Positions 9,398-43,667 of a stretch of 64,000 bases of DNA are shown here, piece after piece (the first letter of the stretch is position 1; the number at the start of each line of letters is the position of its first letter). The notes below the pieces were generated by a model. It made no database searches and was not told the DNA's origin. It was given only the letters and a program-made list of their open reading frames with translations. A program made the position numbers and the translations under genes. The DNA is from Vicinamibacterales bacterium (lineage in GTDB: Bacteria > Acidobacteriota > Vicinamibacteria > Vicinamibacterales > UBA8438), in the NCBI GenBank assembly GCA_965116765.1, contig OZ220718.1, positions 4,096,848-4,160,847 on the forward strand, given 5' to 3'.

Positions 9398-10087
9398 TCA
9401 GCGGTCGCGACGGTCGGGGTCGTCGTAGAGCCAGGGGCGGAGGCGCCGATCCCGTTCCCGCATCGCCTCGGCGCGGTCGCGATGATCGAGCCGTTCGTCG
9501 AGCGTCACGTCGACCCCCCGAAGCAGGCTCATGCGCCGTCTCGAGTCGATCTCGAAGGGGATGGGCGCCATGCCGGGGCGCTCGATGACCTGCCTCGCGA
9601 GGTCGGCCGTCACCTCGACCTCGGGATGCTCCCCGACCCGGTCGGCGAGCCCGGCCACCACCGGCTCGTCCAGGGTCACCGGGAGGAGCCCGAAGTCGAA
9701 GCAGTCGTCATGGAACACGGGACCGAAGCTGGGCGCGATGACCACGCGCATGCCGCACTGCAGGAGGCGGATGACCGCGAACGCCTGCTGGCTGCCCTGG
9801 CCGAAGTTCCGCCCCGCGATCAGGATCGAGGCGTCGCGATACGGCGCCCGGTTGAGGACGAAGTCCGGGTTCTCGGTGCCGTCGGGTCGGTACCGGAAGC
9901 CGTGGAAGGCATGCGGGCCGGTCCAGGACCCGTCGTGGGGGTGGTCCTCGAGAAGCAGGTCGCCCGGGGCGAGGTGCACGGCGTGCAGGTCCTCGAGATC
10001 GGCCCCGACCGGGGCGATGAGCTCGCTCTCGAGATCGGGCTGCCGGAACGGCGCCGCGATGCCGGTATGCCGCACGAACCGGGGCAT
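9398..10087 (-). CDS. LeuD-like small subunit of an aconitase-family dehydratase (paralog 1)
   Basis: MPRFVRHTGIAAPFRQPDLESELIAP...ILIAGRNFGQGSQQAFAV...VIAPSFGPVFHDDC is LeuD-like. The start is the last of three in-frame repeated ATGs. Confidence 0.8.
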   Translation of the reverse strand: MPRFVRHTGIAAPFRQPDLESELIAPVGADLEDLHAVHLAPGDLLLEDHPHDGSWTGPHAFHGFRYRPDGTENPDFVLNRAPYRDASILIAGRNFGQGSQQAFAVIRLLQCGMRVVIAPSFGPVFHDDCFDFGLLPVTLDEPVVAGLADRVGEHPEVEVTADLARQVIERPGMAPIPFEIDSRRRMSLLRGVDVTLDERLDHRDRAEAMRERDRRLRPWLYDDPDRRDR

Positions 10088-10232
10088 GGCTCGCGGCCGG
10101 AAGGGCGCCGCGGTGCCGGCATGCCGCGCGAACCGGGGCATGGCTCGCGGCCGGAAGGGCGCCGCGGTGCCGTCGTGCCGCACGAGCCGGGGCATGGCTC
10201 GCGGCCGGAAGGGCGCCGCGGTGCCGGTGTGC
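10044..10232. repeat. 54-bp tandem repeat, about 3.5 copies, repeating the leuD-like start region
   Basis: The unit ...GGCTCGCGGCCGGAAGGGCGCCGCGGTGCCGGCATGCCGCGCGAACCGGGGCAT places ATGs (minus strand) at 10087, 10141 and 10195, all in frame. The copies differ by point substitutions. Confidence 0.9.
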
Positions 10233-10380
10233 CATGGGTCGAGGCACGGCGCTCGCTGCCTCAGCAGCCCGTGGCGAAAGTCCCCGCTGCATTCCGGCGG
10301 CATGGGTCGATTCTCCCTCGTCGCGGCACGGGGTCTCGGCCCTTCGCCCTTCGGGCCGGTGCAGGGTTTCACCACGGGCG

Positions 10381-11060
10381 TCAGGCCGCGGGTCGCCCGA
10401 CCGGTAGATCCAGGGGCGCTCCCGCTCGTCGCGTTCCCGCAGGGCCCGGGCCGCCGGCAGGTGAGGCTCGATCTCCTCGAGGTCGTGCAGGCCGTTCAGC
10501 AGCTTGTTCCGCACCCGGGGGTCGGTCTCGAACGGGATGGGGTCGCGTCCCGGCATCTCGATCAGCTGCCGCTCCAGATCGACCCTCATCCTGACGCCGT
10601 GGTGCGACTCGACCCACTCGACGATCTCGTTCAGCGTCTCGCGGGGCAGCTCGACCGTCAGCACGCCGTACTGCACCGCGTTGGTGAGGAAGATGGGCCC
10701 GAAGCTCTCGCCGATGTAGACCCTGACGCCCCAGGCCGCGAGGGGCCGGGTGACGCCGGTGACCCGCGAGCTGCCGGTGGCGTAGTTCCTGCCGACGATC
10801 ATGATCGAGGCGGTGCGGTACGCCTCCTGGTTGAAGACGAAGTCGCGCCTCGGCGAGCCGTCCGCGTTGTAGCGGATGTTCGCGAACGCCGTGGCGCCCC
10901 GGCTGGCCCCGAGGCCGCCGCGGGGCGCGTCGAGCCCCTCGGTCAGGTTGGTCAGGGCGGGGGCGATGACGTCGGTGCTGACGTTGTCGAACATGAAGGG
11001 CGCGGCCAGGCCCTCGTGCACGTCGAAGGCGTGCCCGCCGCGCCGTATCTCCTGTCCCAT
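10381..11060 (-). CDS. LeuD-like small subunit (paralog 2); 3' end uncertain
   Basis: MGQEIRRGGHAFDVHEGLAAPFMFDNVSTDVIAP...IMIVGRNYATGSSR...YIGESFGPIFLTNA. The in-frame stop is not reached until 9708. A 1-nt shift near 10384-10392 would give ...RPWIYRSGDPRA* ending at 10381, parallel to the paralog 1 end RPWLYDDPDRRDR*. Confidence 0.7.
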
Positions 11061-11080
11061 GCTTCGACCCCTCTCTACCT

Positions 11081-12568
11081 CTACAGGAACGCGCGCACGT
11101 CGGCGACGCTGCCGGCGATGGCCGAGGCGGCGACGGTGGTCGTGCTCGCCAGAAGGGTGTTCGTCTCCCGCCCCTGCCGGCCGATGTAGTTGCGGTTCGA
11201 GTTGGAGATGCACCGGTGCCCGGGCTCGACGTAGTCGCCGTTCGACCCGTAGCACTTCGAGCAGCCCGACTCGCGCCACTCGAATCCCGCGTCCCTGAAG
11301 GTGCGGTCCAGGCCCTCCGCCTCGGCCTGCGCCTTGACCGCGTTCGATCCCGGCACGACCCAGGCCGAGGCGATGGTCGAGGCGACGCGGCGTCCCTCGA
11401 CGATGGCCGCGGCCGCGCGCAGGTCGCTGATGCGGCTCTCGACGCACGACCCGATGAACACCTCGTCGACCGGCGTCCCGAGAATGGGCTCGCCCGGCGT
11501 GAGGCGGCTGTACTCGATGGCCTGCCGGTAGGTCTCGCGCTTGCCCGGAGGGGCCTGGTCGGGGTCGGGAATCCGTTCGCCGATCCCGATGGCATGCTCG
11601 GGGTTGATGCCCCAGGTGACCTGCGGCTCGACCCCGGTCATGTCGATGGTCTCCTCGCGGTCGAACACCGCGTCGTCGTCGGTCGGCAGCGTGCGCCAGA
11701 ACGCGACCGCCTGGTCCCAGTAGCGTTCCGAGGGGGCGAACTCGCGGCCCGCGAGATACTCGAAGGTGGTGTCGTCGGGACTGACCATGCCCGTCGGCGA
11801 GGCCATCTCCACCGCGAGGTTGCAGACCGAGAAGCGGGCCTCCTGCGACAGCGCCCGCACCACCGGGCCCGCGTACTCGACCGCGTAGCCGGTGCCCGAG
11901 TCGGTGCCGAGCCGGGCGATGGTGTGCAGGATGACGTCCTTCGCCCGGACCCCCGGACCCAGGGCGCCGGTGATGGTCACGCGCATGGTGCGGGGACGGC
12001 GCCGGATGACGGTGCCGGTGCGCAGGATGTTCTCGGAGTTCTCGCCGCCCCACGAGATCAGGCCCATCGCCCCGTGCGTGCAGGTGTGGCTGTCGCCCGC
12101 GCAGAGCACCATGCCGGGCTGGCTCAGCCCGGTCTCGGGGCCGACGATGTGCATGATGCCGTATCGCGGATCGGACTGGCCGAACGCCTTGGTGAAGCCC
12201 AGCTCGCGCATCTCGTCGGCGAGCTCCTCGTACGGCTGCCAGCCCCATCCCAGCGACGGGTCGTCGTACCGGTCCGGCGAGGTGGAGACGGTGTGGTCCG
12301 GCACGCTGTAGAAGATCTCCGGGTTCCGGAGCTCGACGCCTTCCCGGACGAGCCGCATGACCTGGGTGGGACTGCCGCCGATGCAGCGGTCCACCTGCAG
12401 CAGGTCGGTCTCGCCGCCGAGGTTCGCGACGACGTGGGCGTCCCAGACCTTGTCGAACAGGGTCCCGCGGCGGCCCTGCGCCTGGAACCGCGCGAACAGC
12501 GACCGGGGGTGGGCCGAGACGAGCAGGCCGGCGCCGACCGTCGTCCTGATGAAGTCGCGTCTCTTCAT
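11081..12568 (-). CDS. LeuC-like large subunit of an aconitase-family dehydratase with an N-terminal twin-arginine-type signal
   Basis: MKRRDFIRTTVGAGLLVSAHPRSLFA precedes the usual LeuC start (TLFDKVWDAHVV). The cluster cysteines are conserved (IGSCVESR, SGCSKCYG). Confidence 0.85.
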   Translation of the reverse strand: MKRRDFIRTTVGAGLLVSAHPRSLFARFQAQGRRGTLFDKVWDAHVVANLGGETDLLQVDRCIGGSPTQVMRLVREGVELRNPEIFYSVPDHTVSTSPDRYDDPSLGWGWQPYEELADEMRELGFTKAFGQSDPRYGIMHIVGPETGLSQPGMVLCAGDSHTCTHGAMGLISWGGENSENILRTGTVIRRRPRTMRVTITGALGPGVRAKDVILHTIARLGTDSGTGYAVEYAGPVVRALSQEARFSVCNLAVEMASPTGMVSPDDTTFEYLAGREFAPSERYWDQAVAFWRTLPTDDDAVFDREETIDMTGVEPQVTWGINPEHAIGIGERIPDPDQAPPGKRETYRQAIEYSRLTPGEPILGTPVDEVFIGSCVESRISDLRAAAAIVEGRRVASTIASAWVVPGSNAVKAQAEAEGLDRTFRDAGFEWRESGCSKCYGSNGDYVEPGHRCISNSNRNYIGRQGRETNTLLASTTTVAASAIAGSVADVRAFL

Positions 12569-13045
12569 GGTGCCTCCGTTGCGGAGATCGAGAACCGGCG
12601 GTTCGCTGCGTCCACGCCGAGCCCGATGATGATAGCCGCGACGCCGACGTCACGGCGAATCGAGGAACCCCGATCGGCGTCGAGGCCCCGGCCGACGGCA
12701 GCGACCTCACGGCTTGCGAGGCCGAGGCACGGCCGAGTTCCGCTCGGCGTCGCGCCGTGCCGCAGCCGCCGTGCCGACGGCAGGAGATCGAGCACCGCGT
12801 CGCCTCGAAGCTCCGAGGGGTGACCGCGGTCTCGCCCCGGGCTCGCGCCGGAACCGCCACACATGGCGATGATAACCGCATCGGCCCACCGCACGCGCTC
12901 TCGGTGAAGCCGGCCCGGCCCGAGGTTGCGCCCGCGGCCGAGCAGGATCGCCGCGCGCCGCGACCGGCTGCTGCAAGGCAGGCGCCGGACCGTTCCGCCG
13001 AGGAGAACGGGGTGTACCATCGGAGGCCGTGACGCTCACGTCCCC

Positions 13046-13150
13046 TGCAGGATGGACGAGGCGACAGGGGGCATCCGACCCGTCCCGCGCCCCGGACACT
13101 CCGCCCAGGCCTGCAGCCCTGCCGGATGGACGAGGCGACGGGGGCATCGA
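13046..13150 (+). repeat. Two copies of a ~35-bp motif upstream of the MBL gene
   Basis: CTGCAGGATGGACGAGGCGACAGGGGGCATCCGACC and CTGCAGCCCTGCCGGATGGACGAGGCGACGGGGGCATCGACC lie about 74 bp apart. Confidence 0.7.
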
Positions 13151-13168
13151 CCTGCCGAAGGAGGTCTC

Positions 13169-14113: not shown

Positions 14114-14139
14114 CTCGTCGCCCGGCCTGACGCCGGGCC

Positions 14140-14235
14140 GGCTGCGGGCTGCCGGGCAGTCGACTTGCCAGCGACGGCGTGACAGTTTTGCGCCAGCACC
14201 GCAAGATTGCCCGGCACACGGATTCCCCACACGGC
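14140..14235 (+). repeat. Diverged upstream copy of the leader and start region of the 14566 ATPase gene
   Basis: GCCGGGCAGTCGACTTGCCAGCGACGGCGTGACAGTTTTGCGCCAGCACCGCAAGATTGCCCGGCACACGGATTCCCCACACGG aligns with 14505-14590 (...AAAATTGCCCGGCATGTGGATTCCACGCGGG). Confidence 0.65.
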
Positions 14236-15789: not shown

Positions 15790-15844
15790 GGCTCGGTCGT
15801 CGGACGAGACCAGCTGGAGATCGGCACGTCGGTGTCGAGCGGCA

Positions 15845-16312: not shown

Positions 16313-17629
16313 TCACATCAGCCCGACCAGCCATAGCGACAGCGACGGGACCGCGATGAGCAGCAGCAGGCGCAGGATGTCGGCGATCCAGAAGGGCACG
16401 ACGCCGCGGAAGATGGTGTTCAACGGCACGTCGGGCAGGACGTTGCGCAGGACGAACACGTTGAGGCCGACGGGCGGGGTGATGAGGCTGATCTCGGTCG
16501 CGACCACGACCACGATGCCGAACCAGATGAGGGCCGCGTCGGGGGTCGCGAGGGCCGTCGACGCGAAGTCGAGCTCGAACATCAGCGGGGCGAAGACGGG
16601 GACGGTCAGCAGGATCATCGACAGGCTCTCGAGCACGCAGCCGAGGGCCAGGTAGATGAGGACGATGCCGGCCATCACGACCCAGGCGTTCACCCCGAGA
16701 GACCCGATCCACGCGCCCAGGGCCTCGGGCAGCCCCGCGAAGTTGATGAAGCTCGAGAAGATCTCCGCGCCGATGAGGATCGCGAAGATCATCGCGGTGG
16801 TCCGGGCGGTCTGCACGCAAGCGTCGAACAGTTGACGGGCGGTCACCCCGCCGGCCGCCACCGTGATGCACAGGGCGGCGCCCGCGCCGACCCCCGCCGC
16901 CTCGGTGGGCGTGAAGAGGCCGCCGTAGATGCCGGTGAGGATGAGGACGAACAGCGCGGCCACGGCCACGACCCCGAAGCGCTCGCGGGTCGAGAACGGC
17001 TCCCGGTGCTCGGTGCGCGGGGCCGCGGCGGGGTCGAGGCGGACGACCACCGCCACCGCGAGGACGTAGAAGACGACGCCCACGATGCCCGGCACCACGC
17101 CGGCGATGAAGAGCCGGCCGATGTCGGCCTCGGTCAGCAGCCCGTAGACGATGAGGATGACGCTCGGGGGAATGAGGATGCCCAGCGTGCCCCCGGCCGC
17201 GATCGAGCCGGTGGCGAGGCTGTCGGCGTAGCCGTAGCGCCGCATGGAGGGCATGGCGACCTTCGACATCGTGGCCGCGGTGGCGAGCGACGAGCCGCAG
17301 ACGGCGCTGAACCCGCCGCAGGCGACCACCGAGGCCATGGCGAGGCCGCCGCGCACCCGCCCGAGCAGGGCGTTGGCGGCGGCGTAGAGGCCGTGGCTGA
17401 CGCCCGAGATGGTCAGCAGATTGCCCATCAGGATGAACAGCGGCACCACCGACAGCGAGTAGGAGAGGCCGGTCTCGAAGGCGACGTTCCCGACCATGGC
17501 CCAGGCCGCGGACCAGCTTCGGAGCAGGGCGAAGCCGACGGCGCCGACCGCGGCCATCGCGAACGCGATGGGCACCCGCAGGAAGACGAGCGCGAGCAGC
17601 GCCGCGAACCCGAGCAGGGACGCGGTCAC
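16313..17629 (-). CDS. dctM: TRAP transporter large permease
   Basis: 438 aa, polytopic. DctM-like throughout (MTASLLGFAALLALVFLRVPIAFAMA...). Confidence 0.9.
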   Translation of the reverse strand: MTASLLGFAALLALVFLRVPIAFAMAAVGAVGFALLRSWSAAWAMVGNVAFETGLSYSLSVVPLFILMGNLLTISGVSHGLYAAANALLGRVRGGLAMASVVACGGFSAVCGSSLATAATMSKVAMPSMRRYGYADSLATGSIAAGGTLGILIPPSVILIVYGLLTEADIGRLFIAGVVPGIVGVVFYVLAVAVVVRLDPAAAPRTEHREPFSTRERFGVVAVAALFVLILTGIYGGLFTPTEAAGVGAGAALCITVAAGGVTARQLFDACVQTARTTAMIFAILIGAEIFSSFINFAGLPEALGAWIGSLGVNAWVVMAGIVLIYLALGCVLESLSMILLTVPVFAPLMFELDFASTALATPDAALIWFGIVVVVATEISLITPPVGLNVFVLRNVLPDVPLNTIFRGVVPFWIADILRLLLLIAVPSLSLWLVGLM

Positions 17630-17699
17630 GAGGCGCTCCGTGTGGACCTGGCAGGTCGAGGCCCTGTACCGCGCCGGCGATGGACGAGCAGCGATTCGG

Positions 17700-18269
17700 T
17701 CACGAAGCGCTCCGCGCCGGCGGCGTCACGCGGCCGGCCCGCCCATCGTGGCCTGGCGGCTCCGTCCGGCGCTCGACCAACCCCCCACCGGTCCGCGCTG
17801 TTCCATGGCGCAGGCTCCTGACGACGGCGAGCACGCCGCTGAGCGCCGCCATGCCGGCCGCGAACCACCCGAGCGGCGCGAGCGGCACGAGGAGCGCGTC
17901 GGTCGCCGCCTCGTCGTTGGCCAGCCGCGTGCTGTAGACGGCGAGCCGCCACGCGATCGCCCACAGGGCGGCCGCCGACGCGAGGCCGCCGAGCCACGTC
18001 AGCGCGGTCCGGACGCGGGGCGGCGAGGCGTCGAAGAGGGCGTCGACGGCGACGTGCTCTCCCGTCATCGTCGCGAGCGGCAGGGCCGCGAAGACGAGCG
18101 CCCCCAGCATGAGCTCGGTGAGTTCGAACGCCCCCGGCAGGGGGGCGGTGAAGACGTAGCGGCCGATGACGTCGATGACGGTGAGGGCCGCGAGGCCCAT
18201 CAACAGGCACGCGCAGCACCCGCCGAGCCAGAGGTCGAGCGCGCGCAATGGCGAGGCGGAAGCCGGCAC
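17700..18269 (-). CDS. dctQ: TRAP transporter small permease
   Basis: LTVIDVIGRYVFTAPLPGAFELTELMLGALVF is typical DctQ. Lies between dctP and dctM. Confidence 0.8.
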   Translation of the reverse strand: MPASASPLRALDLWLGGCCACLLMGLAALTVIDVIGRYVFTAPLPGAFELTELMLGALVFAALPLATMTGEHVAVDALFDASPPRVRTALTWLGGLASAAALWAIAWRLAVYSTRLANDEAATDALLVPLAPLGWFAAGMAALSGVLAVVRSLRHGTARTGGGLVERRTEPPGHDGRAGRVTPPARSAS

Positions 18270-18273
18270 GGTG

Positions 18274-19371
18274 CTACCTGCCCATGCCGGCGCCCCGGCG
18301 CAGGGCCGCGAGCGCGGCCCGGCCGTCGTAGCCCCGGGTCGCCACTCTCCCCGTCCACCGGGCCTCGTGCTCCCGCGCCAGCGACCGGATGGCGTCGAGC
18401 ATGGGGGGCGGCGCGTCGTAGATGTCGATGCCCGCGGCGCGGATCGCCTCGATGGCGCGCGTGTCGGCGTCGTTCCACGCGCGGCCCACCCGCTCGGCCA
18501 GCGCCTCGCCCGAGACGGCCTCGATGGCGGCCCGGTCCCGCGCGGATATCTTCCGCCACGCGTCCTCGTTGGCGACGACGTACCAGGTGGTGTTGTAGAT
18601 GCCTCCCGGCACCCGCATGGCGTAGCGAAGGTGGGGGGTCAGGCGGAAGGCGGTCGTCGCCTCCCAGGTCATGGTGAGGCCGTCGATGACGCCGCGCGAG
18701 AGCTTCTGGTAGACGTCGCCGCTGTCCATGAACAGGGTCGTCGCGCCGAGCTCGTCCATGAGCTCGGCGACGTAGCCGCCGGGGGTGCGGATCTTCAGCC
18801 CCGCGAGGTCCGCCGGGCGCTCGATGCGTCGGACGTTGTTGTAGAGGATGCCGGGGCCGTGGACGAAGAGGCCCAGCAGCTTGACGCCCTCGTGCTCGGC
18901 CTGGGCGTCGAGCCGGCCGGAGTACACCCGCCAGAATGCCCGCGACCCCGCCGCCGCGTCGTCGCCGATGAACGAGAGCTGGGCGAACCGCGACCGCGGG
19001 AACCGGTTGTCCCGGGTGAACGAGTGGAGGCCGTAGGTCAGGTCGGCGATGCCGTCGACGGCCAGGTAGTAGTGCGACGGCGGCGAGCCGAGCGGCCTTG
19101 CCAGCAGGCGCACCGTCACCCGGCCCTCGGTCACCGCCTCGATCTGCTCGATCCAGGGCACGAACGCGTTGGCGACGATGGGGTGCCGCGGCGGGAGCCA
19201 CGACGACATCACCAGCTCGGTCCTGGCGCCCGTGGTGAGACCCTGAGTTGCGCCGACGGCAGCGGGGCCGTTCGCGGCAGGTTCCCGGGCGCAGGCCGCG
19301 GCGGCGACGGCCGGTAGGACCGCCAGCGACAGCAGGGCCGTCCACTCCCAGCCGGTGCGCCCGCGCATCAC
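18274..19371 (-). CDS. dctP: TRAP transporter substrate-binding protein
   Basis: Signal peptide followed by DctP-family similarity (ELVMSSWLPPRHPIVANAFVPW...). Confidence 0.85.
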   Translation of the reverse strand: MMRGRTGWEWTALLSLAVLPAVAAAACAREPAANGPAAVGATQGLTTGARTELVMSSWLPPRHPIVANAFVPWIEQIEAVTEGRVTVRLLARPLGSPPSHYYLAVDGIADLTYGLHSFTRDNRFPRSRFAQLSFIGDDAAAGSRAFWRVYSGRLDAQAEHEGVKLLGLFVHGPGILYNNVRRIERPADLAGLKIRTPGGYVAELMDELGATTLFMDSGDVYQKLSRGVIDGLTMTWEATTAFRLTPHLRYAMRVPGGIYNTTWYVVANEDAWRKISARDRAAIEAVSGEALAERVGRAWNDADTRAIEAIRAAGIDIYDAPPPMLDAIRSLAREHEARWTGRVATRGYDGRAALAALRRGAGMGR

Positions 19372-19438
19372 TCGTCGAGCTCCTTTCGGTCCTGCGGCGC
19401 CAGCAGGGCCGCGCGCCCGCCGCCGGTGCGCCGGCTCG

Positions 19439-19978
19439 TCACTTGTCGAGCTCCTTCTCGTGCATCCAGGCCGCGTGCCGCGGCGCGCGCTTGGTCTCGG
19501 ACCACTCGCGGAGCATATCCCACTTCACGGCGTCGAGCCTGGCCAGCTTGGCCTCCTCCTCAGGGTCGGGGCACGCGAGCTCGATGCGGTGTCCGTTGGG
19601 GTCGAAGAAGTAGACGGAGTGGAAGATGGCGTGGTCGGTCACCCCGAGCACGTCGACGCCGTTGGCCTCGAGGCGCGCCCTGAACGCGAGCAGGGTCTCG
19701 CGGTCCTTCACCTTGAAGGCGATGTGCTGGACCCATTCGGGCGTGTTGGGGTCGCGCCCCATCTCGGGCTTCGTGGGCAGCTCGAAGAAGGCGAGCACGT
19801 TGCCCTGCCCGGCGTCGAGGAAGACGTGCATGTAGGGGTCGGGCTCGTGCGTGGACGGCACGCGGTCCTCGGCGATGGCCAGCACGAAGTCCATGTTGAG
19901 GTTCTTCACGTACCAGTCGACGGTCTCCTTGGCGTCCCGGCAGCGGTAGGCCACGTGGTGGATCCGTTCGAGCTTCAT
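19439..19978 (-). CDS. VOC family protein (glyoxalase/extradiol dioxygenase fold)
   Basis: MKLERIHHVAYRCRDAKETVDWY...VQHIAFKV...SVYFFDPNGHRIEL. Confidence 0.85.
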   Translation of the reverse strand: MKLERIHHVAYRCRDAKETVDWYVKNLNMDFVLAIAEDRVPSTHEPDPYMHVFLDAGQGNVLAFFELPTKPEMGRDPNTPEWVQHIAFKVKDRETLLAFRARLEANGVDVLGVTDHAIFHSVYFFDPNGHRIELACPDPEEEAKLARLDAVKWDMLREWSETKRAPRHAAWMHEKELDK

Positions 19979-19995: not shown

Positions 19996-20298
19996 TCAGG
20001 CATCGCGCCGAGGGCGGTTCCCGGCATCGCCGTCCGTCGGCTCCGTGCGCGACTCGGATGGCGTCCCGGCGATCCCGCGCGCGGCGCCGCTCTCGTCGCC
20101 GCCGCCCGTCGGAGATTCGGCGGCCCGGAACGCCTCGCGGAGGACCTGCCGGTCGCCGACGTGGTTGGCGAGAATCAGCACCAGGCGGGCGTTGATCGCG
20201 TCGCTCTCGGCCTTGGAGCGGCCCTCGTGCAGCGACAGCAGCTCCTCGTAGAAGCCGTCCGGATCGTCGATGTTCGGCCCGGTGCGCAGCTCGCTCAT
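19996..20298 (-). CDS. DUF2783-like small protein
   Basis: MSELRTGPNIDDPDGFYEELLSLHEGRSKAESDAINARLVLILANHVGD. ATGA overlap with the upstream monooxygenase gene. Confidence 0.7.
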   Translation of the reverse strand: MSELRTGPNIDDPDGFYEELLSLHEGRSKAESDAINARLVLILANHVGDRQVLREAFRAAESPTGGGDESGAARGIAGTPSESRTEPTDGDAGNRPRRDA

Positions 20299-21923
20299 GC
20301 CGGGTGCCCCACTGCCACTCGTAGCGCGCGCGCGACCGACGCCTCGTCGAACGACGGCCAGCGCGCGGCGACGTGCTGGTCGGGACGAATCAGGTAGACC
20401 GCCGAGGCCGCGGCGCCCAGGTAGCGCTCGCGCAACGCGTCGGAGGGGGCCGCCGCGGCGTCGAGGCGCAGCCCGTCGACCGGCAGTCCGTCGACCTCGA
20501 GGCGGTCGGGCGCCGGGGTGTCGACGGCCAGGAGCCGGAAGCGGCCGCCGAGAGCGTCGACGAGCCAGCCGTCCTCGAGCGGGACGTCCGAGGCCGGCGC
20601 GCCGGGCCGGGTGCGCCGCGGCAGGGCGGGGTGGTCGGGGCCGTTCAGCGGCGAGCCGTCGTGCACGCACGGCACCGACAGGCGGCCCGAGTTGACGAGG
20701 GGCCGGGCGAACGGCAGGTTCTCCGACAGGTCGAGCACCGCGTCGCGGAAGAGGCGGCTCGTCGCCGACTTGGGGGTGATGAAGTCGGTCGACCGCGTCG
20801 AGGCGACGAGGTTCTCGTCGGCGGCCTGGATGCGCTCGTGGTCGTAGCTGTCGAGCAGCCGCTCGGGCGCGAGTCCCTCGATGACGAGCTTGAGCTTCCA
20901 GCACAGGTTGTCGGTGTCCTGGAAGCCGCTGTTGGCGCCGCGCGCCCCGAACGGCGACACCTGGTGGGCCGAGTCGCCGGCGAAGACGACCCGACCGTGC
21001 CGGAACCGCTCCATGCGGCGGCACTGGAAGGTGTAGACCGACACCCACTCGAGCTCGAAGCGCACGTCGGGGCCCAGCATCGCCCGCAACCGGGGGACGA
21101 CGTTCTCGGGCTTCTGCTGCTCGTCGCGGTCGACGCCGCGGCCGAGCTGGAGGTCGATGCGCCAGACGTGGTCGGGCTGCTTGTGGAGCAGCGCCGACTG
21201 CCCCCGGTTGAACGGGGGGTCGAACCAGAACCACCGCTCGGTCGGAAAGTCGGCCTCCATGACGACGTCGGCGATGAGGAAGTTGTCCTCGAAGACGCGG
21301 CCGACGAAGTCGGCGCCGAGCATGCGCCGCACCGGCGAGCCGGCCCCGTCGCAGGCGAGCAGCCAGCCCGCCTCGAGGCGGTAGGGGCCGTCCGGGGTGC
21401 CGACCTCCACCCCCACCCCGTCGGGGCGCGGGTCGACGCCGACGACCTCGTGGCGTCCCCTGAGCTCGACGGGCTTGCCGAGGCGCTCGAGGGCGCGCAG
21501 CCGCTCGACGAGATACTGCTCGCAGTAGTACTGCTGCAGGTTGACGAAGGCCGGCCGCTTGTGCCCCGCCTCGGGCAGGAGGTCGAACCGGTAGACCTGC
21601 CGGCGGTCGAAGAAGACCTTCCCCGTGCTCCAGGTCACGCCCTTCTCCACCAGGCGGTCGCCGCAACCCAGCCGGTCGAGGATCTCCAGGGGCCGCTTGG
21701 CGAAGCAGATGGCGCGCGAGCCGCCGCTCACCCGGTCGTTGTCGTCGAGCACCACCACCGGCACGTCCTGCTGCGCGAGGTCGATGGCCGCGGCGAGCCC
21801 GATCGGGCCCGCGCCGACCACCACCACCGGGTGGAACGCGACGGGGTCGGCGTCCTGGTCCGGCGACCGCCGGTAGGGGTAGAGCGGCGCCGGGTCGGAC
21901 GCCGCGGCGTCAGGGCTGTCCAT
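20295..21923 (-). CDS. FAD-dependent aromatic-ring monooxygenase (MhpA/PheA-TfdB family)
   Basis: VVVVGAGPIGLAAAIDL (GxGxxG), CDGAGSPVR and FAGDSAHQVSPFGARGANSGFQD. Uses the internal Met of track ORF 20295..22574. Confidence 0.9.
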   Translation of the reverse strand: MDSPDAAASDPAPLYPYRRSPDQDADPVAFHPVVVVGAGPIGLAAAIDLAQQDVPVVVLDDNDRVSGGSRAICFAKRPLEILDRLGCGDRLVEKGVTWSTGKVFFDRRQVYRFDLLPEAGHKRPAFVNLQQYYCEQYLVERLRALERLGKPVELRGRHEVVGVDPRPDGVGVEVGTPDGPYRLEAGWLLACDGAGSPVRRMLGADFVGRVFEDNFLIADVVMEADFPTERWFWFDPPFNRGQSALLHKQPDHVWRIDLQLGRGVDRDEQQKPENVVPRLRAMLGPDVRFELEWVSVYTFQCRRMERFRHGRVVFAGDSAHQVSPFGARGANSGFQDTDNLCWKLKLVIEGLAPERLLDSYDHERIQAADENLVASTRSTDFITPKSATSRLFRDAVLDLSENLPFARPLVNSGRLSVPCVHDGSPLNGPDHPALPRRTRPGAPASDVPLEDGWLVDALGGRFRLLAVDTPAPDRLEVDGLPVDGLRLDAAAAPSDALRERYLGAAASAVYLIRPDQHVAARWPSFDEASVARALRVAVGHPA

Positions 21924-22131
21924 CGCCCTGCAGCTCGGCCCGCATGCGCCGGTCGCGCTCGGCCGTCCAGATGCGCGGGGTGTCGATGCCCAGCGCCTCG
22001 TCGCAAGCGCGGGCCACGTCACTATCCATCGCCCTGCAGCTCGGCCCACATGCGCTGGTCGCGCTCGGCCGTCCAGATGCGCGGGGTGTCGATGCCCAGC
22101 GCCTCGTCGTAGGCGCGGGCCACGTTGAACG
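21920..22131. repeat. 106-bp tandem duplication (2 copies) of the MBL-stop / monooxygenase-start junction
   Basis: CCATCGCCCTGCAGCTCGGCCC(G/A)CATGCGC(C/T)GGTCGCGCTCGGCCGTCCAGATGCGCGGGGTGTCGATGCCCAGCGCCTCGTCG... begins at 21920 and again at 22026. Confidence 0.9.
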
Positions 22132-22978
22132 GGAGGCAGTGCTCGTAGATGGCGTAGTCCGAGAACCGGCCATCGCAGGCGGCGCGGCAGGCCTCGAACG
22201 CCTCCTTCAGGCTGCCTCCCCGCGCGGCGACCCGCGCCACCGGCCGATACGTGCCGGCCAGGAAGTCGGCGGTCAGGTGGATCGCCTCGCTGACCCTGTC
22301 CGACCCCACGAGGGCGTCCCCCCGGCCGGGCATCAGCGCGTCGGGCCGGAAGCCCTGGACGGCGGCCAGCGTCGCCGGCCAGTCGCCGAAGTGACCGTCG
22401 CCGCAGTAGCAGGCCGAGCGGTACTCGACGATGTCGCCGCTGAACATGACGCCCGCGTCGGGCACCCAGGCCACGATGTCGCCCGCCGTGTGGGCGCGTC
22501 CGAGCCACGCCAGGTCGACGCGGCGGCGGCCGAGGTAGAGCGTCATGCGCCGGCGGAACGTGACCGTCGGCCACGTCAGCCCGGGGATCGACTCGGCCGC
22601 CCGAAACAGCCGCGGGAAGCGCGCGTACTCGCTGTCCCAGTCCTCCTGCCCCCGCTCGCGGATCATCGCCCGGCAGGCCTCCGACGCAATGATCTCGCTC
22701 GCCCCGTAGGCCGAGGCGCCCAGCACCCGCACCGCGTGGTAGTGGCTCAGCGTGACGTACTTGATGGGCTTGTCGGTCACCCCGCGCACGCGCTCGACGA
22801 CCTGCTGCGCCATCACCGGCGTGGCCTGGGTGTCGATGACCATCACCGAGTCGTCGCCGATGATGACGCCCGTGTTCGGGTCCCCCTCGGTCGTGAAGCC
22901 ATAGAGATCGCGGGCTATCTCCGAGAACGAGATCTTCTTCTCGCTCAGGTCGCCCGTGGACGCGAAGGCTCTGGTCAC
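22022..22978 (-). CDS. MBL-fold metallo-hydrolase
   Basis: The GTG start forms a GTGA overlap with the fahA stop. LSHYHAVRVLG is a variant of the MBL HxHxDH motif, and HTAGD is present. 318 aa. Confidence 0.85.
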   Translation of the reverse strand: MTRAFASTGDLSEKKISFSEIARDLYGFTTEGDPNTGVIIGDDSVMVIDTQATPVMAQQVVERVRGVTDKPIKYVTLSHYHAVRVLGASAYGASEIIASEACRAMIRERGQEDWDSEYARFPRLFRAAESIPGLTWPTVTFRRRMTLYLGRRRVDLAWLGRAHTAGDIVAWVPDAGVMFSGDIVEYRSACYCGDGHFGDWPATLAAVQGFRPDALMPGRGDALVGSDRVSEAIHLTADFLAGTYRPVARVAARGGSLKEAFEACRAACDGRFSDYAIYEHCLPFNVARAYDEALGIDTPRIWTAERDQRMWAELQGDG

Positions 22979-27636: not shown

Positions 27637-28644
27637 TCAGGGCAGCGAGGTCGGCGCGTCCGGCTTCGGGATCTCGGGCTCGACCCACTCGTTGCGGACG
27701 CGGCGCCGAATCGTCTTCAGGCCGAAGAACACGCCCAGCTCGATCTCCACGAGGGTCCGGTCGGGAATCCAGAGGCCCGATTCGATTCGGCGGAAATCGA
27801 GCCGGCCGGTCGCGCGGCGGAGGGTGCCGGCGATTCCCCACAGCCAGCGGACGGGCTGCTGCATCTCGAACTCGGCCCGCCTCACGCCGTAGTCGTGCTG
27901 CGCGATCCAGAGGCGGCCCGTCGAGCGGTTCATCGCCCGGTCGAGGCGCCGGTTGTCGGGCAGCCGTCCCTCGCGGGGCTCGAACCCGATGACCCAGCAG
28001 ACGCTGCCGCCGACGACGTCGGTGCCGACGAGCGTGGTGACGTAGCGGTCCATCAGCTCGCGGTCGAAGTCGACGCGCATCTCGTCCGGTTGGTAACGCT
28101 CGCCCCGCTCGGCGTGGCGTCTCGCCTCGCGGACGAAGTCGTCCCTCTTCTCCCGCTCGTCCCGGGCTTCGTCCTCGTCGAGGGGGCCGCCGTCGCGCCC
28201 GATGACCTCCGAGTAGAAGTGGCCCTCGAGGGGATAGTGGCGGTTGCGGGTCGTCTCGGTGTCGGTCACGCGCCCGTCGCCGTCGAGCGATTCGACCCGG
28301 CCGTCGGTGAAGTACTCGAAGCCGAGCTCGAACGCCACCACCCGCTGCCCGGCCGCCTGTTCGAGAGCGCGATCGATGATCTGATGCGCGGCGGCAGGGG
28401 CGTAGAGGGCATCGAGGGCGTCGACTTCCGGTGACGCGTCGAGGGCGCCGACGACTTGAGGAACGGCGTCGAGAGCGCCGACGTCAGGAGCTGCATCGAG
28501 GGCGCCGACTTCGGGGGCCGCGTCGATGGTCGCGACAACCGGGGCCGCGTCGTGGGGGCCGACGTCGGGAGACTGAGCCGCCGCTGCAAGGGGAACGCAG
28601 ACCAACCCGAAACTGCACGCCGTCGCCGAGAGTCGATTCGTCAC
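27637..28644 (-). CDS. Secreted hypothetical protein with an N-terminal 8-9-aa repeat region
   Basis: The GTG start is preceded by AGGAAGGAG. Signal VTNRLSATACSFGLVCVPLAAAAQ. Repeats of DAAPEVGAL type. Lies within track ORF 27637..28788. Confidence 0.65.
   Translation of the reverse strand: MTNRLSATACSFGLVCVPLAAAAQSPDVGPHDAAPVVATIDAAPEVGALDAAPDVGALDAVPQVVGALDASPEVDALDALYAPAAAHQIIDRALEQAAGQRVVAFELGFEYFTDGRVESLDGDGRVTDTETTRNRHYPLEGHFYSEVIGRDGGPLDEDEARDEREKRDDFVREARRHAERGERYQPDEMRVDFDRELMDRYVTTLVGTDVVGGSVCWVIGFEPREGRLPDNRRLDRAMNRSTGRLWIAQHDYGVRRAEFEMQQPVRWLWGIAGTLRRATGRLDFRRIESGLWIPDRTLVEIELGVFFGLKTIRRRVRNEWVEPEIPKPDAPTSLP
28411..28572. repeat. About 6 imperfect 24-27-bp tandem repeats, coding
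   Basis: GCGTCGAGGGCGCCGAC-type units encode (D/A)A(A/V/S)P(E/D/Q)VGAL(D) repeats on the minus strand. Confidence 0.8.
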
Positions 28645-30519: not shown

Positions 30520-30522
30520 CGG

Positions 30523-34505: not shown

Positions 34506-34518
34506 CGTCCTCTCCCGT

Positions 34519-40331: not shown

Positions 40332-40375
40332 CGCCCGCGCGTCGGCGGCGGGCGGCGACGGCAGGAGACGACGAT

Positions 40376-41596
40376 ATGGCTCGACGGTGGGTGCTGGCCG
40401 GTCTGTGCGCGGCGATCGCGTCGCCGGGCGCCGCACAGCCGCTGACCGAGGCCGGGGCGGTGGCGCGGATGCGGGCGGAGTACACGCACGTGACCGCGCT
40501 GCGGCTCGGGGTGCGCGAGCTCGAGGCGGACGCCCGCGAACGGACCCTGGTCGCCAACCCGGCCGTCGCGTACACGCGCGAGGAGGCCGGCGCCGTCGTC
40601 GACGACTTTCTGCTCGTGAGCCAGGAGCTGCCCCTGTGGGGGCGGCGGGGGTTGCTGGGCGAGGCGGCCGGGCGCGGGGTCGCGGCCCGTTCGGCCGACG
40701 CCGACGCCCGCCTGCTGGCCATCGAGGCCGAGTTGCGCCTGGTGTTCACCGATCTCCTGCTCGCTCAGGAACGGGTGCAGTCGCTCGAGGCCGGCGTAGT
40801 GCGGCTCGACGCGCTGATTGCGGTGCTGCGGACGCGCGAGGAGGAGGGCGAGGGCTCGCGGTTCGACCGGCTGCGGGCCGAGCGCGAGGTGGCGGAGGTC
40901 GACGCCGACCTCGCGCTGGCCGGCATCGACCGGCGGCGGGCGCAGGCGCGGCTCGCCGCCTTCTTCGCCGCGGGGACCGACCCCGACGGGCTTGCCGCGG
41001 CGGGCCGTCTCGACGACCTTCCGGCCCCGCCGGTCCTCGCCCCCGCGGCTGGCGGGACGCCCGAACGCCGCCCGGACTATCGGGCGCTCGGCCTGGAGGG
41101 GGAGCGGTGGGGGGCCGAGGAGCGCGCGGCGCGGCGCCTGCGGCTGCCTTCCGCCCAGCTCACCGGGGGCATGAAGCGCAGCGGCGTGCTCGGGGCGATG
41201 GAGAGCGGGTTCGTGTTCGGCGCCTCGCTGTCGGTGCCGGTCTTCAATCGCGGCCAGGCGCAGGCGGCGCGGGCGGCGGCGGCCGGCGCGCGTGTCGAGG
41301 CCGAGCGCCGCAGCCTCGCCGCCCGTATCGCGGCCGAGGTCCACGCCGCCTCGGCCGCGGCGGCCGGCGCCCGCGAGCTGGCCGACCGCTATCGCGAGGA
41401 CTCGGTGGCGCGCGCGGCCGAGCTCGTGGCCATCGCGACCGCGGGCTACGAGGAGGGCGAGTTCGGCATCCTGGAGCTGCTCGACGCCCATCGGGTCGCC
41501 CTGAGCGCCGAGCTGCGGTCGCTCGAGCTGTCGGCGGCGGCGCGTCGGGCCGCCGTCGAGCTCGACCGCGCTTCGGGGCGGGAGTTGACGCCGTGA
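40376..41596 (+). CDS. TolC-family outer-membrane efflux protein (CusC/CzcC-like)
   Basis: Signal peptide, two coiled-coil repeat halves, and operon position ahead of the adaptor and RND pump genes. Confidence 0.8.
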   Translation: MARRWVLAGLCAAIASPGAAQPLTEAGAVARMRAEYTHVTALRLGVRELEADARERTLVANPAVAYTREEAGAVVDDFLLVSQELPLWGRRGLLGEAAGRGVAARSADADARLLAIEAELRLVFTDLLLAQERVQSLEAGVVRLDALIAVLRTREEEGEGSRFDRLRAEREVAEVDADLALAGIDRRRAQARLAAFFAAGTDPDGLAAAGRLDDLPAPPVLAPAAGGTPERRPDYRALGLEGERWGAEERAARRLRLPSAQLTGGMKRSGVLGAMESGFVFGASLSVPVFNRGQAQAARAAAAGARVEAERRSLAARIAAEVHAASAAAAGARELADRYREDSVARAAELVAIATAGYEEGEFGILELLDAHRVALSAELRSLELSAAARRAAVELDRASGRELTP

Positions 41597-41925
41597 GCCG
41601 CGGGCGGCCGGCGCCGGGCCCCCGTCGAGCTGGACAGTGTGTCGGGGCGGGAGTTGACGCCGTGAGCCGCGGGCGGCGGGTGCCGGGCCCCCGTCGAGCT
41701 GGACGGTGTGTCGGGGCGGGAGTTGACGCCGTGAGCCGCGGAGCGGCGCGGGCGCCGGGCCCCGTCGAGCTGGATGGCGGGGCGGGAGATGTCGCCGTGC
41801 TGTCGGCGACGGCGCCCGGGCCGCGATCGACCGTGTGTCGGGGCGGGAAGCGACGCCATGAGCTGTCGCGCGCGTCGGGCCGCGATTGAGTTCGGCCGTG
41901 TGTCGGAGCGGGAGAAGACGCCATG
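41555..41925. repeat. About 6 decaying tandem copies (65-71 bp) of the tolC-stop / next-gene-start junction
   Basis: The core GGGGCGGGAG(T/A)(T/A)G(A/T)CGCC(G/A)TGAG recurs near 41576, 41645, 41714, 41780, 41842 and 41908. Only the last copy supplies the real ATG at 41923. Confidence 0.9.
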
Positions 41926-43482
41926 AGGAACAGCAGGCACGCAACAGGCTGGCTGGCGACGGCGGTGTTGCTGTCGGCGGACGCAGCGGTGCTCTCGGCG
42001 TGCGGCTCCGCGCCGCCGGCGGAGGTGGAGGCGGCAGAGGGGCCGGCCCCGGTCGTGGTGAGCCAGTGGACCGACCGCAGCGAGCTGTTCGTCGAGTTTC
42101 CGCCCCTCGTCGCGGGGGCCACGAGCCGGTTCGCCATCCACTTCACCGACCTCGCCACCTTCGCGCCGCTGCGCGAGGGACGCGCGACGGTGCGCCTGAC
42201 CGGCGCGCGGGTCGAGGAGTTCGAGGTCGACGAGCCGGGAAGCCCCGGCATCTTCGGGGTCGACGTCACCCCCGCCGCCGCCGGCCGCGCCCGGCTCGAG
42301 CTGCTGCTCGACGCGGCGGCGGTGCAGGACCGGCACGACCTCGGCGAGGTCCGGGTGCTGACGGCGGCGGAGGCGGCGGCGCTGCCGCCCGCGGCCGAGG
42401 AGGAGGACGGCACCGTCCCCTTCCTCAAGGAGCAGCAGTGGTCGCTCGACTTCGCGACGGCCGCGGCCCGCCGCCGGTCGATGGCCGACAGCATCGACAT
42501 CCCGGCCCAGATCCAGCCGCGCACCGGCGGGGAGGCCGAGGTGACGAGCCCGGTGGCGGGCCGCCTCGCCGCCGACCTGCCGCCCCGGCCGGTGGGGTCC
42601 GTCGTGGGCCGCGGCGACGCCCTGGCCCAGGTCGTTCCCCGCAGCGAGCACGCCGACGACCGCCCCGCCCTCGAGCTCGCGGTGGCCGAGGCCCGCGACG
42701 CCCTCGAGCTGGCGCGGGCCGAGCACGCGCGGGTCGAGCGGCTGGTCGAGGTCGGCGCGCTGCCTGCCCGCCGCCGGCTCGAGGCGCGGCTCGCGTCGCA
42801 GACGGCCGAGGCCCGGATGACGGCGGCCGAGGCCCACCTCGCCCAGCTCGACTCGACGCGCCGGGGCGAAGGAGAGGGCACGGCGGACACGCGGTTCGTG
42901 CTGCGCGCGCCGATGGGCGGCGTCGTCGCGGAGTCGGGGGCGACCCCCGGGGCCAGCGTCGACGAGGGCGCGCGGCTGTTCAAGCTGATCGCGGTCGACC
43001 GCGTCCACGTCGTCGGGGCGCTGCCCGAGGCGGCCCTGCCGCGCCTCGACGACCTCGCCGCGGCCGAGCTCGAGGTGCCGGGGGGCGGGGACCCGCTGCC
43101 CCTCGACCGGCTCGTGTCGGTGGGGCGCGTGGTCGACGCCGACACCCGCACCGTCCCCATCATCTACGCGCTCGCGAACCCGGACCGCAGGCTCGCCATC
43201 GGCCAGGCCGTCACCCTCCGCGTGTTCGGCGCCTCGAGGACCGCCGCCGTCACCGTGCCCGCGAGCGCCATCGTCGACGACGCCGGCCAACCGGTGGTCT
43301 TCGTCCAGGTCGGCGGCGAGAGCTTCGAGCGGCGCCCGGTCAGGCTCGGCCACCGCGAGGGCGCGGACGTCCAGGTGATCGGCGACGTGGCGGCGGGCGA
43401 CCGGGTGGTCACGATGGGGGCGCCGCTCATCCGCCTGGCGGCGCTGTCGCCGCAGGTGCCGGCCCACGGGCACACGCACTGA
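41923..43482 (+). CDS. Efflux RND periplasmic adaptor (CusB/HlyD-like) lipoprotein with a His-rich tail
   Basis: Lipobox LSAC. Barrel-sandwich, coiled-coil and beta-barrel order. C-terminus ...PAHGHTH*. Confidence 0.85.
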   Translation: MRNSRHATGWLATAVLLSADAAVLSACGSAPPAEVEAAEGPAPVVVSQWTDRSELFVEFPPLVAGATSRFAIHFTDLATFAPLREGRATVRLTGARVEEFEVDEPGSPGIFGVDVTPAAAGRARLELLLDAAAVQDRHDLGEVRVLTAAEAAALPPAAEEEDGTVPFLKEQQWSLDFATAAARRRSMADSIDIPAQIQPRTGGEAEVTSPVAGRLAADLPPRPVGSVVGRGDALAQVVPRSEHADDRPALELAVAEARDALELARAEHARVERLVEVGALPARRRLEARLASQTAEARMTAAEAHLAQLDSTRRGEGEGTADTRFVLRAPMGGVVAESGATPGASVDEGARLFKLIAVDRVHVVGALPEAALPRLDDLAAAELEVPGGGDPLPLDRLVSVGRVVDADTRTVPIIYALANPDRRLAIGQAVTLRVFGASRTAAVTVPASAIVDDAGQPVVFVQVGGESFERRPVRLGHREGADVQVIGDVAAGDRVVTMGAPLIRLAALSPQVPAHGHTH

Positions 43483-43664
43483 CGGCGGACGGGCCGGTTG
43501 CGGCGCTCTCGCCGCGGTCGCCGGCCCACGGGCACACGCACTGACGGCGGACGGGCCGGTTGCGGCGCTCTCGCCGCGGTCGCCGGCCCACGGGCGCACG
43601 CATTGACGCCGGACGGGCCGGCTGCGGCGCTGCCGCGGGTGCCGGCCCACAGGAAACCGCACCG

Positions 43665-43667
<3 letters not shown>
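43443..43667. repeat. 62-bp tandem repeat, about 3.5 copies, of the adaptor gene's last 13 codons plus stop
   Basis: TGA at 43480, 43542 and 43604. The unit GCCGGCCCACGGGCACACGCACTGACGGCGGACGGGCCGGTTGCGGCGCTCTCGCCGCGGTC recurs, and the partial fourth copy ends at the cusA ATG (43665). Confidence 0.9.

Follow-up and report, generated by a model that had tools for sequence, protein, structure and literature searches.

Tandem duplication of operon junctions and locus-specific minisatellites in a sponge-associated Vicinamibacterales bacterium

Introduction

Bacterial minisatellites generally form by slipped-strand mispairing or by unequal recombination. MIRU/VNTR loci (mycobacterial interspersed repetitive units and variable-number tandem repeats) are used worldwide for the typing of tuberculosis, and their origin and function remain unclear. 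MIRUs were reportedly described by Supply et al. in 1997. According to a review (PMC12548453), these short repeats are located at start codons and contain an open reading frame (ORF) that is coupled at -4 nt, so that expression is affected as little as possible. The repeat ETR-F/VNTR3239 fills the rnc-fpg1 junction (279-358 bp) in the Mycobacterium tuberculosis complex only, this junction measuring 1-54 bp in other mycobacteria, and its length was found to be correlated with fpg1 mRNA (PMC2734929). Here we describe tandem arrays at operon junctions in a stretch of 64,000 nucleotides from a Vicinamibacterales genome (assembly GCA_965116765.1, contig OZ220718.1, positions 4,096,848 to 4,160,847 of the forward strand), which will be referred to as the window. 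Four arrays of this stretch lie between co-directional genes, their units were each derived from the junction at which they are located, and the arrays behave as locus-specific minisatellites (VNTRs).

The closest genomes of the window are chromosomes of metagenome-assembled genomes (MAGs) of the Vicinamibacterales (Acidobacteriota), and the runs that hold its sequence are sponge metagenomes; its host is a Vicinamibacterales bacterium living with sponges. Because the GC content of the window is ~71%, genes were called by third-position GC and Pfam instead of from raw ORFs. Tandem arrays were detected with Tandem Repeats Finder (TRF), followed by a repeat search for degenerate copies. Syntenic loci (designated L) were gathered at 70-99% identity, starting from the CzcA protein, a DctM cluster and the large subunit of the aconitase; an exact-match query with the DctM of the window gave no match, and relatives were obtained through members of the DctM cluster. 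A scan of metagenome contigs returned distant relatives only (≤73% identity), which served as background control. Short-read checks were performed on Logan contigs of sequencing runs (designated X), among which X4 is a sponge metatranscriptome.

Four arrays at co-directional gene junctions

TRF detected all four arrays at the places given in the first-pass annotation of the window:

10042-10250, minus strand: array 1, between LeuD-like genes B and C; period 54 bp, 3.4-3.9 copies, 93% matches (TRF)
21919-22125 (TRF; unit-based 21912-22123), minus strand: array 2; period 106 bp, 2.0 copies, 96% matches
41533-41925, plus strand: array 3; TRF 41533-41799, period 69, 3.9 copies, with degenerate units on to 41925
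43438-43667, plus strand: array 4; TRF 43438-43650, period 62, 3.5 copies, 92% matches

All four consist of head-to-tail copies with a unit of at least 10 bp, as judged by TRF and the repeat search. CRISPR arrays are ruled out, as the copies directly adjoin without spacers. No Rfam match at the gathering threshold was obtained in the whole window, the single chance-level match (E 0.32) lying around array 1. The arrays had further been described as consisting of mutually unrelated units, as straddling the boundaries of co-directional genes and as having copies with point differences. The all-against-all comparison presented below agrees with the first of these statements, the other two features were both seen, and the description was right in every respect.

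The window stems from a metagenome assembly and some of the relatives are represented by low-coverage contigs, which would be compatible with repeats that merely result from collapsed or expanded assembly. However, the copies within the arrays have diverged, and the same arrays are present in independent assemblies of different samples. The membrane-fusion protein of the window is identically encoded on contigs of 3 other datasets, and two independent ENA metagenome assemblies (L001 and L002, 99.5-99.6% identical) contain arrays 3 and 4 with the same TRF copy number, array 4 of L002 differing by 3 bp in length. Array 1 is likewise found in other assemblies, in 4 copies (L091, L176), and so is array 2 (L091, L092, L175). 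It had been put forward that the arrays might vanish upon validation at the read level, but zero-mismatch Logan contigs from four runs (X1, X2, X3 and X6) span the copy borders of arrays 1 and 2. Arrays 3 and 4 are partly covered by contigs from X1-X3, and they are transcribed, since metatranscriptome contigs from X4 extend across both. An assembly or sequencing artefact, the probability of which we regard as practically nil, is excluded for practical purposes.

Local origin, copy-number variation and recurrence

Every unit was derived from its local junction. In an all-against-all blastn comparison of 14 units, matches were obtained solely among units of the same junction, and each unit matched its own single-copy junction in relatives. 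In distant relatives the same junctions are single and take the form of ATGA, TGATG or 8-nt overlaps, while close relatives hold 1 to 6 copies of the junction units. The copy numbers over the relatives, which compare lineages at the same locus and not individuals of one population, are 1/2/4 for array 1, 1/2/2.6/3/4 for array 2, 1/~2.5/6 for array 3 and 1/3.5 for array 4. The arrays thus behave as locus-specific minisatellites. Two observations, a 148-bp higher-order period in the 74-bp array of L091 (97% identity versus 90% at 74 bp) and the near-identity of inner copies in L092, indicate growth by dimers or by unequal exchange. The presence of arrays is lineage-specific, and the same and neighbouring junctions have been duplicated independently. 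The phenomenon had been considered recurrent on the basis of four cases and it was proposed to look for it in related genomes; clade relatives indeed bear junction arrays too, and the phenomenon is far more pervasive, both in the window and in the relatives, than the four cases suggested.

These data also bear on the idea that the units belong to a mobile, MIRU-like element, i.e. a dispersed family inserting at start codons, as has been proposed for mycobacterial MIRUs. The architecture is the same, with tandem units at junctions and coupled short ORFs, and a true dispersed element does occur at junctions (10265-10380, see below), the 58- and 48-bp arrays of L087 being located inside such an element. 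Nevertheless, the four units and ten others are mutually dissimilar, the homology of each lies with the gene ends beside it and with the corresponding single-copy junction in relatives, and the units have no palindromic structure. We therefore consider a mobile origin of the units highly improbable. Their assignment to repetitive extragenic palindromes (REP), bacterial interspersed mosaic elements (BIME) or miniature inverted-repeat transposable elements (MITE) was rejected as well, since they fold no better than shuffled sequences (z -1.0 to +1.1) and are not dispersed.

Array 2 and neighbouring junctions of the metallo-beta-lactamase to DctM operon

Array 2 is part of an operon extending from a metallo-beta-lactamase-fold gene to dctM. 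Short ORFs that run from a previous stop to the next start are termed relay ORFs here. The relevant features are the following:

22022-22978, minus strand: metallo-beta-lactamase-fold gene (Pfam), upstream of array 2; start approximate
21910-22029, minus strand: 39-aa relay ORF in array 2 (ORF translation)
20295-21923, minus strand: FAD-dependent monooxygenase gene (Pfam), downstream of array 2
19302-19443, minus strand: older array at the glyoxalase/DctP junction, two copies of a 71-bp unit with 70% identity; overlooked by TRF
17611-17714, minus strand: older array at the DctQ/DctM junction, two copies of a 74-bp unit; overlooked by TRF

The unit of array 2 comprises the last ~98 nt of the metallo-beta-lactamase-fold gene and the 8-nt start/stop overlap ATGGATAG, which contains the stop codon of this gene and the ATG of the FAD monooxygenase gene. 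The ATG of the 39-aa relay ORF overlaps the upstream stop TAG at 22024-22022, and its TGA overlaps the start of the FAD monooxygenase gene by 14 nt. In L084-L088 the junction is single, ATGGCTAG, which represents the ancestral state for array 2, and three, 2.6 and four copies are present in L175, L091 and L092, respectively.

The two older arrays contain relay ORFs as well. At the glyoxalase/DctP junction, a 24-aa relay ORF (19442 to 19368) has GTGA at its start and TGATG at its end; this junction has been duplicated more than once, units of 56-57 bp covering its upstream end and units of 71-113 bp the downstream start. The 25-aa relay ORF at the DctQ/DctM junction (17703 to 17626) has GTGA at both ends and is intact, without indels, in 5 lineages, while the junction has no duplication in L088 and L092. 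Differences between the copies of this ORF in the lineages are distributed over the three codon positions as 11 / 8 / 4, which represents neither a third-position concentration nor a sign of selection at the peptide level. Conservation, if there is any in this relay, would concern its being translated rather than the peptide sequence.

Nearly every junction of this operon bears an array in some lineage. L087 contains arrays of 58, 48 and 54 bp, the last with 1.9 copies at DctP/DctQ; L088 contains arrays of 57 and 45 bp; L091 contains an array of 74 bp with four copies at the junction between the FAD monooxygenase and DUF2783 genes, which has no counterpart in the window, and one of 71 bp; L092 contains an array of 57 bp and a 21-bp unit in two copies that repeats the end of the aconitase gene (six codons and TAG); and L175 has a 26-nt duplication at DctQ/DctM.

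Some further properties of these loci should be mentioned. L091 (ena:ERZ24894577:ctg517956l) is the locus richest in arrays, with 106 bp in 2.6 copies, 74 bp in 4, 71 bp in 1.9 and 54 bp in 4. Several of its genes were called in two pieces (DctM with 312 + 126 aa and glyoxalase with 89 + 90 aa), reflecting either incipient pseudogenisation or indel errors of a low-coverage contig. In L088, a 345-aa gene of no assigned function is inserted between DctP and DctQ in that lineage and harbours a 441-bp tandem repeat of 1.9 copies (L088:4330-5177, 87% identical). The flanks of L084-L093 are dense in toxin-antitoxin pairs (PIN, ParE, HigB, PemK, Phd), transposases, ankyrin-repeat genes and Apyc1-like metallo-beta-lactamase genes; gene order is not kept beyond the operons.

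Array 1 and the adjacent MITE-like element

Array 1 and a dispersed element that is separate from the tandem arrays lie next to each other between two LeuD-like genes:

9398-10087, minus strand: LeuD-like gene C (Aconitase_C, Pfam); 229 aa from the last ATG, 247 or 265 aa from the duplicated ATGs
10381-11060, minus strand: LeuD-like gene B (Aconitase_C, Pfam); the stop homologue TGA at 10383-10381 is out of frame
10265-10380, minus strand: MITE-like insertion of 116 bp, located precisely at the gene B stop codon and separating this gene from array 1

In each unit of array 1, the first 15 codons of LeuD-like gene C are repeated in frame together with the 9 nt that precede them. The repeated peptide reads MPRFVRH.G.AAPFR..., and the copies of the ATG are located at 10195, 10141 and 10087. 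Two copies are present in L088, four in L091 and L176, and one in L089 and L092, where the start of gene C is unduplicated and represents the ancestral state.

The terminal inverted repeats of the MITE-like element have the sequence CAGCCCGTGG[T/C]GAAA, and its DNA hairpin has a z-score of -3.0. At the same site, L176 has a more complete copy (L176:6724-6902), which measures ~195 bp and shows a CTGA target duplication; no insertion is present there in L091, L092, L088 or the contigs of runs X1-X3. Words from the right end of the element have a depth of ~6100 versus ~100 in the flanks; the element therefore represents a high-copy family. Further occurrences are located in L087 (4417, 7563, 8253 and 14907), L092 (9512) and L009 (9813-9990), and fragments are present at other gene junctions. 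Beside the insertion, a 1-nt deletion costs LeuD-like gene B its stop codon, and the frame continues to 9708, i.e. for ~225 codons (9708-11060 of the window, minus strand) across array 1 into gene C. Gene B is normal, with 226 aa, in L088, L091, L092 and L176. In the region 9398-12568 (minus strand) as a whole, the large subunit belongs to the aconitase family, its N-terminus (MKRRDFIRTTVGAGLL...) is twin-arginine-like, and two consecutive LeuD-like small subunits follow, the second of which has a degenerate version (GSQQAFA) of the GSSREHA-type motif.

Arrays 3 and 4 in the czcCBA-like operon

The two remaining arrays flank the membrane-fusion protein gene of a czcCBA-like operon:

40376-41596, plus strand: outer-membrane efflux protein (OEP) gene (Pfam, gene table)
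41593-41889, plus strand: 98-aa ORF through array 3, opening at a GTG that overlaps the upstream stop (GTGA)
41858-41926, plus strand: 22-aa ORF of the last unit of array 3, from the ATG at 41858 to a TGA that overlaps the membrane-fusion ATG (ATGA)
41923-43482, plus strand: membrane-fusion protein (MFP) gene (CusB/CzcB-like, Pfam), with arrays 3 and 4 on its two sides
43665-46760, plus strand: CzcA-type RND efflux pump gene (Pfam ACR_tran)

The unit of array 3 consists of the last ~65 nt of the OEP gene and the GTGA/ATGA overlap. Six copies of the junction are located at 41593, 41662, 41731, 41797, 41858 and 41923, with spacings of 69, 69, 66, 61 and 65. The 98-aa ORF ends 34 nt before the true membrane-fusion start. 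A single ATGA is found at the OEP/MFP junction in L005 and L007-L010, and ~2.5 copies in L004.

In array 4, the unit consists of 42 nt of the 3' end of the MFP gene, the TGATG overlap and ~17 nt of the 5' end of czcA. There are 4 copies of the junction with spacings of 62, 62 and 59, the last and most diverged of which reaches the czcA ATG at 43665. The upstream copies read TGACG and have lost the start codon, and the last copy reads CGATG and has lost the stop codon; four changes clustered in this copy have moreover produced an AGGA motif, 10 nt ahead of the czcA ATG. Because the copies decay in a complementary fashion, an ancestral TGATG was predicted for this junction, and a plain TGATG was later seen at the MFP/CzcA junction of L005. 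L004 has older degenerate units at this junction, together with a separate 119-bp duplication that extends 95 nt into czcA.

Reading phase of the duplicated junctions

We distinguished three phases on the basis of spacings modulo 3, measured between homologous start/stop motifs. In relay phase, the duplicated start is in phase with the stop of the next copy, which results in a relay ORF. In extension phase, the duplicated start is in phase with the true start, which results in an N-terminal extension. In dead-end phase, neither is the case and ribosomes would cross the true start out of frame. An automatic chain finder, accepting any ATG or GTG near a stop, was dropped, as it is too permissive at 71% GC and makes links everywhere.

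Among 21 distinct spacings at 6 junctions, relay phase applied to 13, extension phase to 7 and dead-end phase to 1 (binomial P(≤1 dead-end)=0.0023), numbers which have to be read with the caveat that the phase hypothesis is post hoc, that several spacings come from the same junction and are not fully independent, and that n is small. When one spacing was counted per duplication event, 7 of 8 were in relay phase (P = 0.0026). Relay ORFs with overlapping ends are present in array 2, in its homologues in L092, L175 and L091, in the 74-bp array of L091 (three 25-aa ORFs joined by ATGA), and in the 71- and 74-bp arrays of the window. An independent gene caller placed three 37-aa ORFs with successive 8-nt overlaps between the metallo-beta-lactamase-fold gene and the FAD monooxygenase gene of L092, and one relay ORF at this position in L175. 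In L091, one unit lacks 9 nt and another contains a compensated frameshift; the peptide is altered, and the chain stays in phase. Array 3 shows the relay-ORF architecture in part. Array 1 is an in-frame N-terminal duplication, and both 54-bp N-terminal duplications (array 1 and the one at DctQ of L087) are in frame.

The first-pass annotation had offered selection for uncoupling as one interpretation of the arrays. This is mostly contradicted by the 20 of 21 spacings that keep relay or extension phase, and the phase bias points instead to the preservation of coupling. Array 4 alone appears uncoupled, its duplicated ATGs having changed to ACG and a new AGGA having appeared before the czcA start.

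Placement and density of the arrays

The placement of the arrays was tested with the gene tables of 8 related loci, amounting to 166 kb with 142 co-directional and 43 divergent or convergent junctions. Fourteen of the 16 arrays with a period of at least 40 touch a co-directional junction, and the other two are located in a divergent spacer and in a gene interior. By comparison, over 20,000 trials of random placement the mean was 4.2 and the maximum 12 (P<5e-5). The enrichment at co-directional junctions that had been proposed as a test therefore holds in the sampled loci. Counted as independent events, arrays occur in a ratio of roughly 11:1 at co-directional junctions versus divergent and convergent spacers of similar total length. 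A segment at 13043-13144 (plus strand, divergent spacer), which resembles a start codon region and is present in two copies 74 nt apart, is of uncertain membership in the phenomenon.

Ten clade loci had 70.6 arrays per Mb. None was found in other Vicinamibacterales (179 kb), and the density was 6.7 per Mb in 1.19 Mb around czcA of other bacteria and 2.9 per Mb in 697 kb of distant homologues of the FAD-monooxygenase operon. The clade loci were picked by homology to array-bearing regions, which biases both density and placement upwards; the 9 arrays at junctions that were not used in the choice of loci still amount to ~47 per Mb. Two random and operon-poor clade loci, which were drawn with a gene from the multi-copy AAA-ATPase/PD-(D/E)XK family, contained one array, located in a co-directional spacer. 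The member of this family in the window (59489-61036, minus strand; PF09820 + PF08011) has 7504 related proteins with E≤1e-150 in sponge-metagenome assemblies.

Three arrays near the OEP/MFP junction of control loci were rejected as junction duplications, being an in-frame hairpin element (L021), a His-rich low-complexity region (L027) and a coiled-coil repeat (L068). The first of these, L021:8266-8428 from another acidobacterium, has a hairpin-bearing 54-bp unit in three copies that are 98% identical and lie in frame just past the membrane-fusion ATGA start; this insertion looks REP- or MIRU-like rather than like a local duplication.

The tandem repeats that lie within genes of the window have periods that are nearly all multiples of 3 (TRF). 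An in-frame internal duplication, comprising a 41-nt block with 100% and a 55-nt block with 91% identity, is located at 56093-56304 (minus strand) in an ORF of ~110 aa, the ATG of which overlaps the stop codon (ATGA) of the gene at 56369-57427. A 27-bp (9-codon) array of ~5.6 copies with 69% matches is present in the 5' region of a minus-strand gene at 28412-28566 and also at L091:267-407.

The arrays had been suggested to reflect a local mutational mechanism acting at coupling sites. Local duplication is supported by our data, but a specificity for coupling sites was not borne out. Young two-copy arrays match themselves at the repeat offset over just 0-3 nt more than one period, and the first duplication is therefore essentially homology-independent. 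Moreover, the folding of single-stranded DNA was equal for 9 array-acquiring and 11 array-free tight junctions, with a mean z of ~+0.1 in both sets, and hairpin-driven slippage was rejected as a general cause.

A broader version of this idea is that a clade-specific process preferentially duplicates start/stop overlaps, so that the placement would be mutational and not selective. Candidates for such a process would be paired nicks or stalled forks followed by fill-in and end-joining, or the activity of a junction-targeting MITE. The density in the clade is 10-25 times that of other bacteria, other Vicinamibacterales included, and the same junctions were duplicated independently with different borders; the unit borders, however, are scattered between 98 nt upstream and 95 nt downstream of the junction. 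The 0-3 nt of microhomology fits fill-in and joining and not recombination, but the units have no common sequence motif and no common hairpin, and the ancestral junctions fold like the controls. In these genomes, stop codons and junctions are indeed insertion sites of a MITE family with CTGA target duplication, and the ~11:1 excess over divergent and convergent spacers is in line with a bias towards junctions, while the phase bias requires selection anyway. On balance, we consider such junction-directed mutagenesis a decidedly unlikely explanation.

Origin and maintenance of the arrays

Altogether, the observations are best accounted for by spontaneous local tandem duplication, followed by selection for intact genes and tolerable translation, and by VNTR-type expansion and contraction, a reading to which we assign a probability of roughly 0.6. 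The first duplication would be made by replication slippage, template switching, or fill-in and end-joining, and the arrays would then gain and lose copies by slippage or by unequal recombination between the copies. In a duplicated junction, the first copy provides the upstream stop and the last copy the downstream start, leaving both proteins intact, while the redundant middle copies would be read as short relay ORFs or as an in-frame N-terminal extension. Selection would purge duplications that break genes, as well as those junction duplications whose length sends ribosomes out of frame over the real start, and the survivors of this translational filter would for that reason resemble MIRUs. 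The clade itself may have an unusually high input or retention of junction duplications.

Several points weigh against this reading. The ~11:1 excess over divergent and convergent spacers is not obviously predicted by a pure tolerance filter, and a mutational, junction-biased process is therefore possible. Coupling is not always kept, as array 4 is spaced in relay phase and yet devoid of relay ORFs, and array 3 combines 69-bp units in extension phase with one 61-bp unit in dead-end phase. To these should be added the choice of loci and the post hoc nature of the phase hypothesis, as outlined above.

It can also be argued that the copy number at a junction is adaptive, serving as a reversible dial in which a relay step or the length of the spacer sets the ratio of the downstream to the upstream protein. 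Sponge symbionts would thereby control the stoichiometry of transporters and enzymes in a contingency-like manner. Even between very closely related lineages, copy number does differ, both for arrays 1-4 and for the 74-bp array of L091, which is not in the window, but such variation is expected of any neutral minisatellite. The clustered substitutions that make AGGA before czcA in array 4 after the loss of coupling, and the correlation of junction VNTR length upstream of fpg1 with fpg1 mRNA in M. tuberculosis (PMC2734929), would be in accordance with tuning. On the other hand, arrays are found at many junctions of unrelated function, and the split genes of L091, the locus richest in arrays, fit relaxed selection or sequencing error. 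Adaptive tuning therefore appears unlikely to us, albeit worth keeping in mind. We regard as similarly unlikely the more far-reaching proposition that a dedicated or biased process of junction duplication, or selection to keep its products, has turned chains of relay ORFs into a heritable and reversible dial of protein ratios and that MIRU-like repeats are being born here.

The MIRU-like architecture of the arrays can be traced, junction by junction, to the duplication of a start/stop overlap, with ancestral, two-copy and multi-copy states in relatives. This makes it testable how intercistronic minisatellites arise and whether selection for coupling shapes the survivors. The rate of events in the clade is an order of magnitude over background and may reflect a peculiarity of DNA repair or of the population genetics of symbionts. 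For annotation, it should be noted that the arrays yield spurious N-terminal extensions and short ORFs, which can mislead gene callers on MAGs.

Comparison with known systems

A full-text search of a limited literature collection returned no description of locally derived junction duplications, nor of such repeats in Vicinamibacterales or sponge symbionts. The first-pass annotation knew of no mobile-element family or standard feature type that accounts for the arrays. This view is not supported, as the arrays show VNTR behaviour and are comparable to MIRUs (PMC12548453) and to repeats of the ETR type (PMC2734929).

The likeness to MIRUs concerns tandem units of 40-100 bp between the genes of operons (here 54, 106, 69 and 62 bp), in part of the present arrays a short ORF per unit that overlaps the start and stop of its neighbours (-4 nt in MIRUs) and would relay translational coupling, a copy number that varies between strains, and a high-GC host genome. 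However, MIRUs are a dispersed family of related sequences at ~41 loci that is thought to be mobile, whereas each array described here has its own unit from the flanking gene ends. The host belongs to the Acidobacteriota and not to Mycobacterium, and some of the present arrays are in-frame N-terminal duplications or have no relay starts. Since their units do not form a dispersed family, the arrays are not members of the MIRU family.

ETR-F shares with the present arrays its lineage specificity, a locus-specific unit, polymorphic copy number and the position at a co-directional junction that measures just 1-20 bp in related species (PMC2734929). An origin of its unit from the flanking genes is not documented in that study, whereas the present arrays explicitly show derivation from the start/stop overlap, relay ORFs and a phase bias, and the density per Mb in this clade appears high.

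The ATGA, GTGA, TGATG and 8-nt overlaps that link genes and relay ORFs resemble those of termination-reinitiation ORFs, which pass ribosomes on to a coupled downstream gene (PMC12548453, PMC6728339), but the relay ORFs are by-products of duplication and serially repeated, and their translation is a prediction. With REP, BIME and MITE sequences the arrays have in common their intergenic and junction positions, and one such element adjoins array 1; the array units differ from these in being without inverted repeats and in not being dispersed. Lastly, head-to-tail copies, stepwise gain and loss, higher-order periods and reversion to one copy are shared with generic bacterial minisatellites, from which the present arrays are set apart by an initial border homology of 0-3 nt and by their concentration at translationally coupled junctions.

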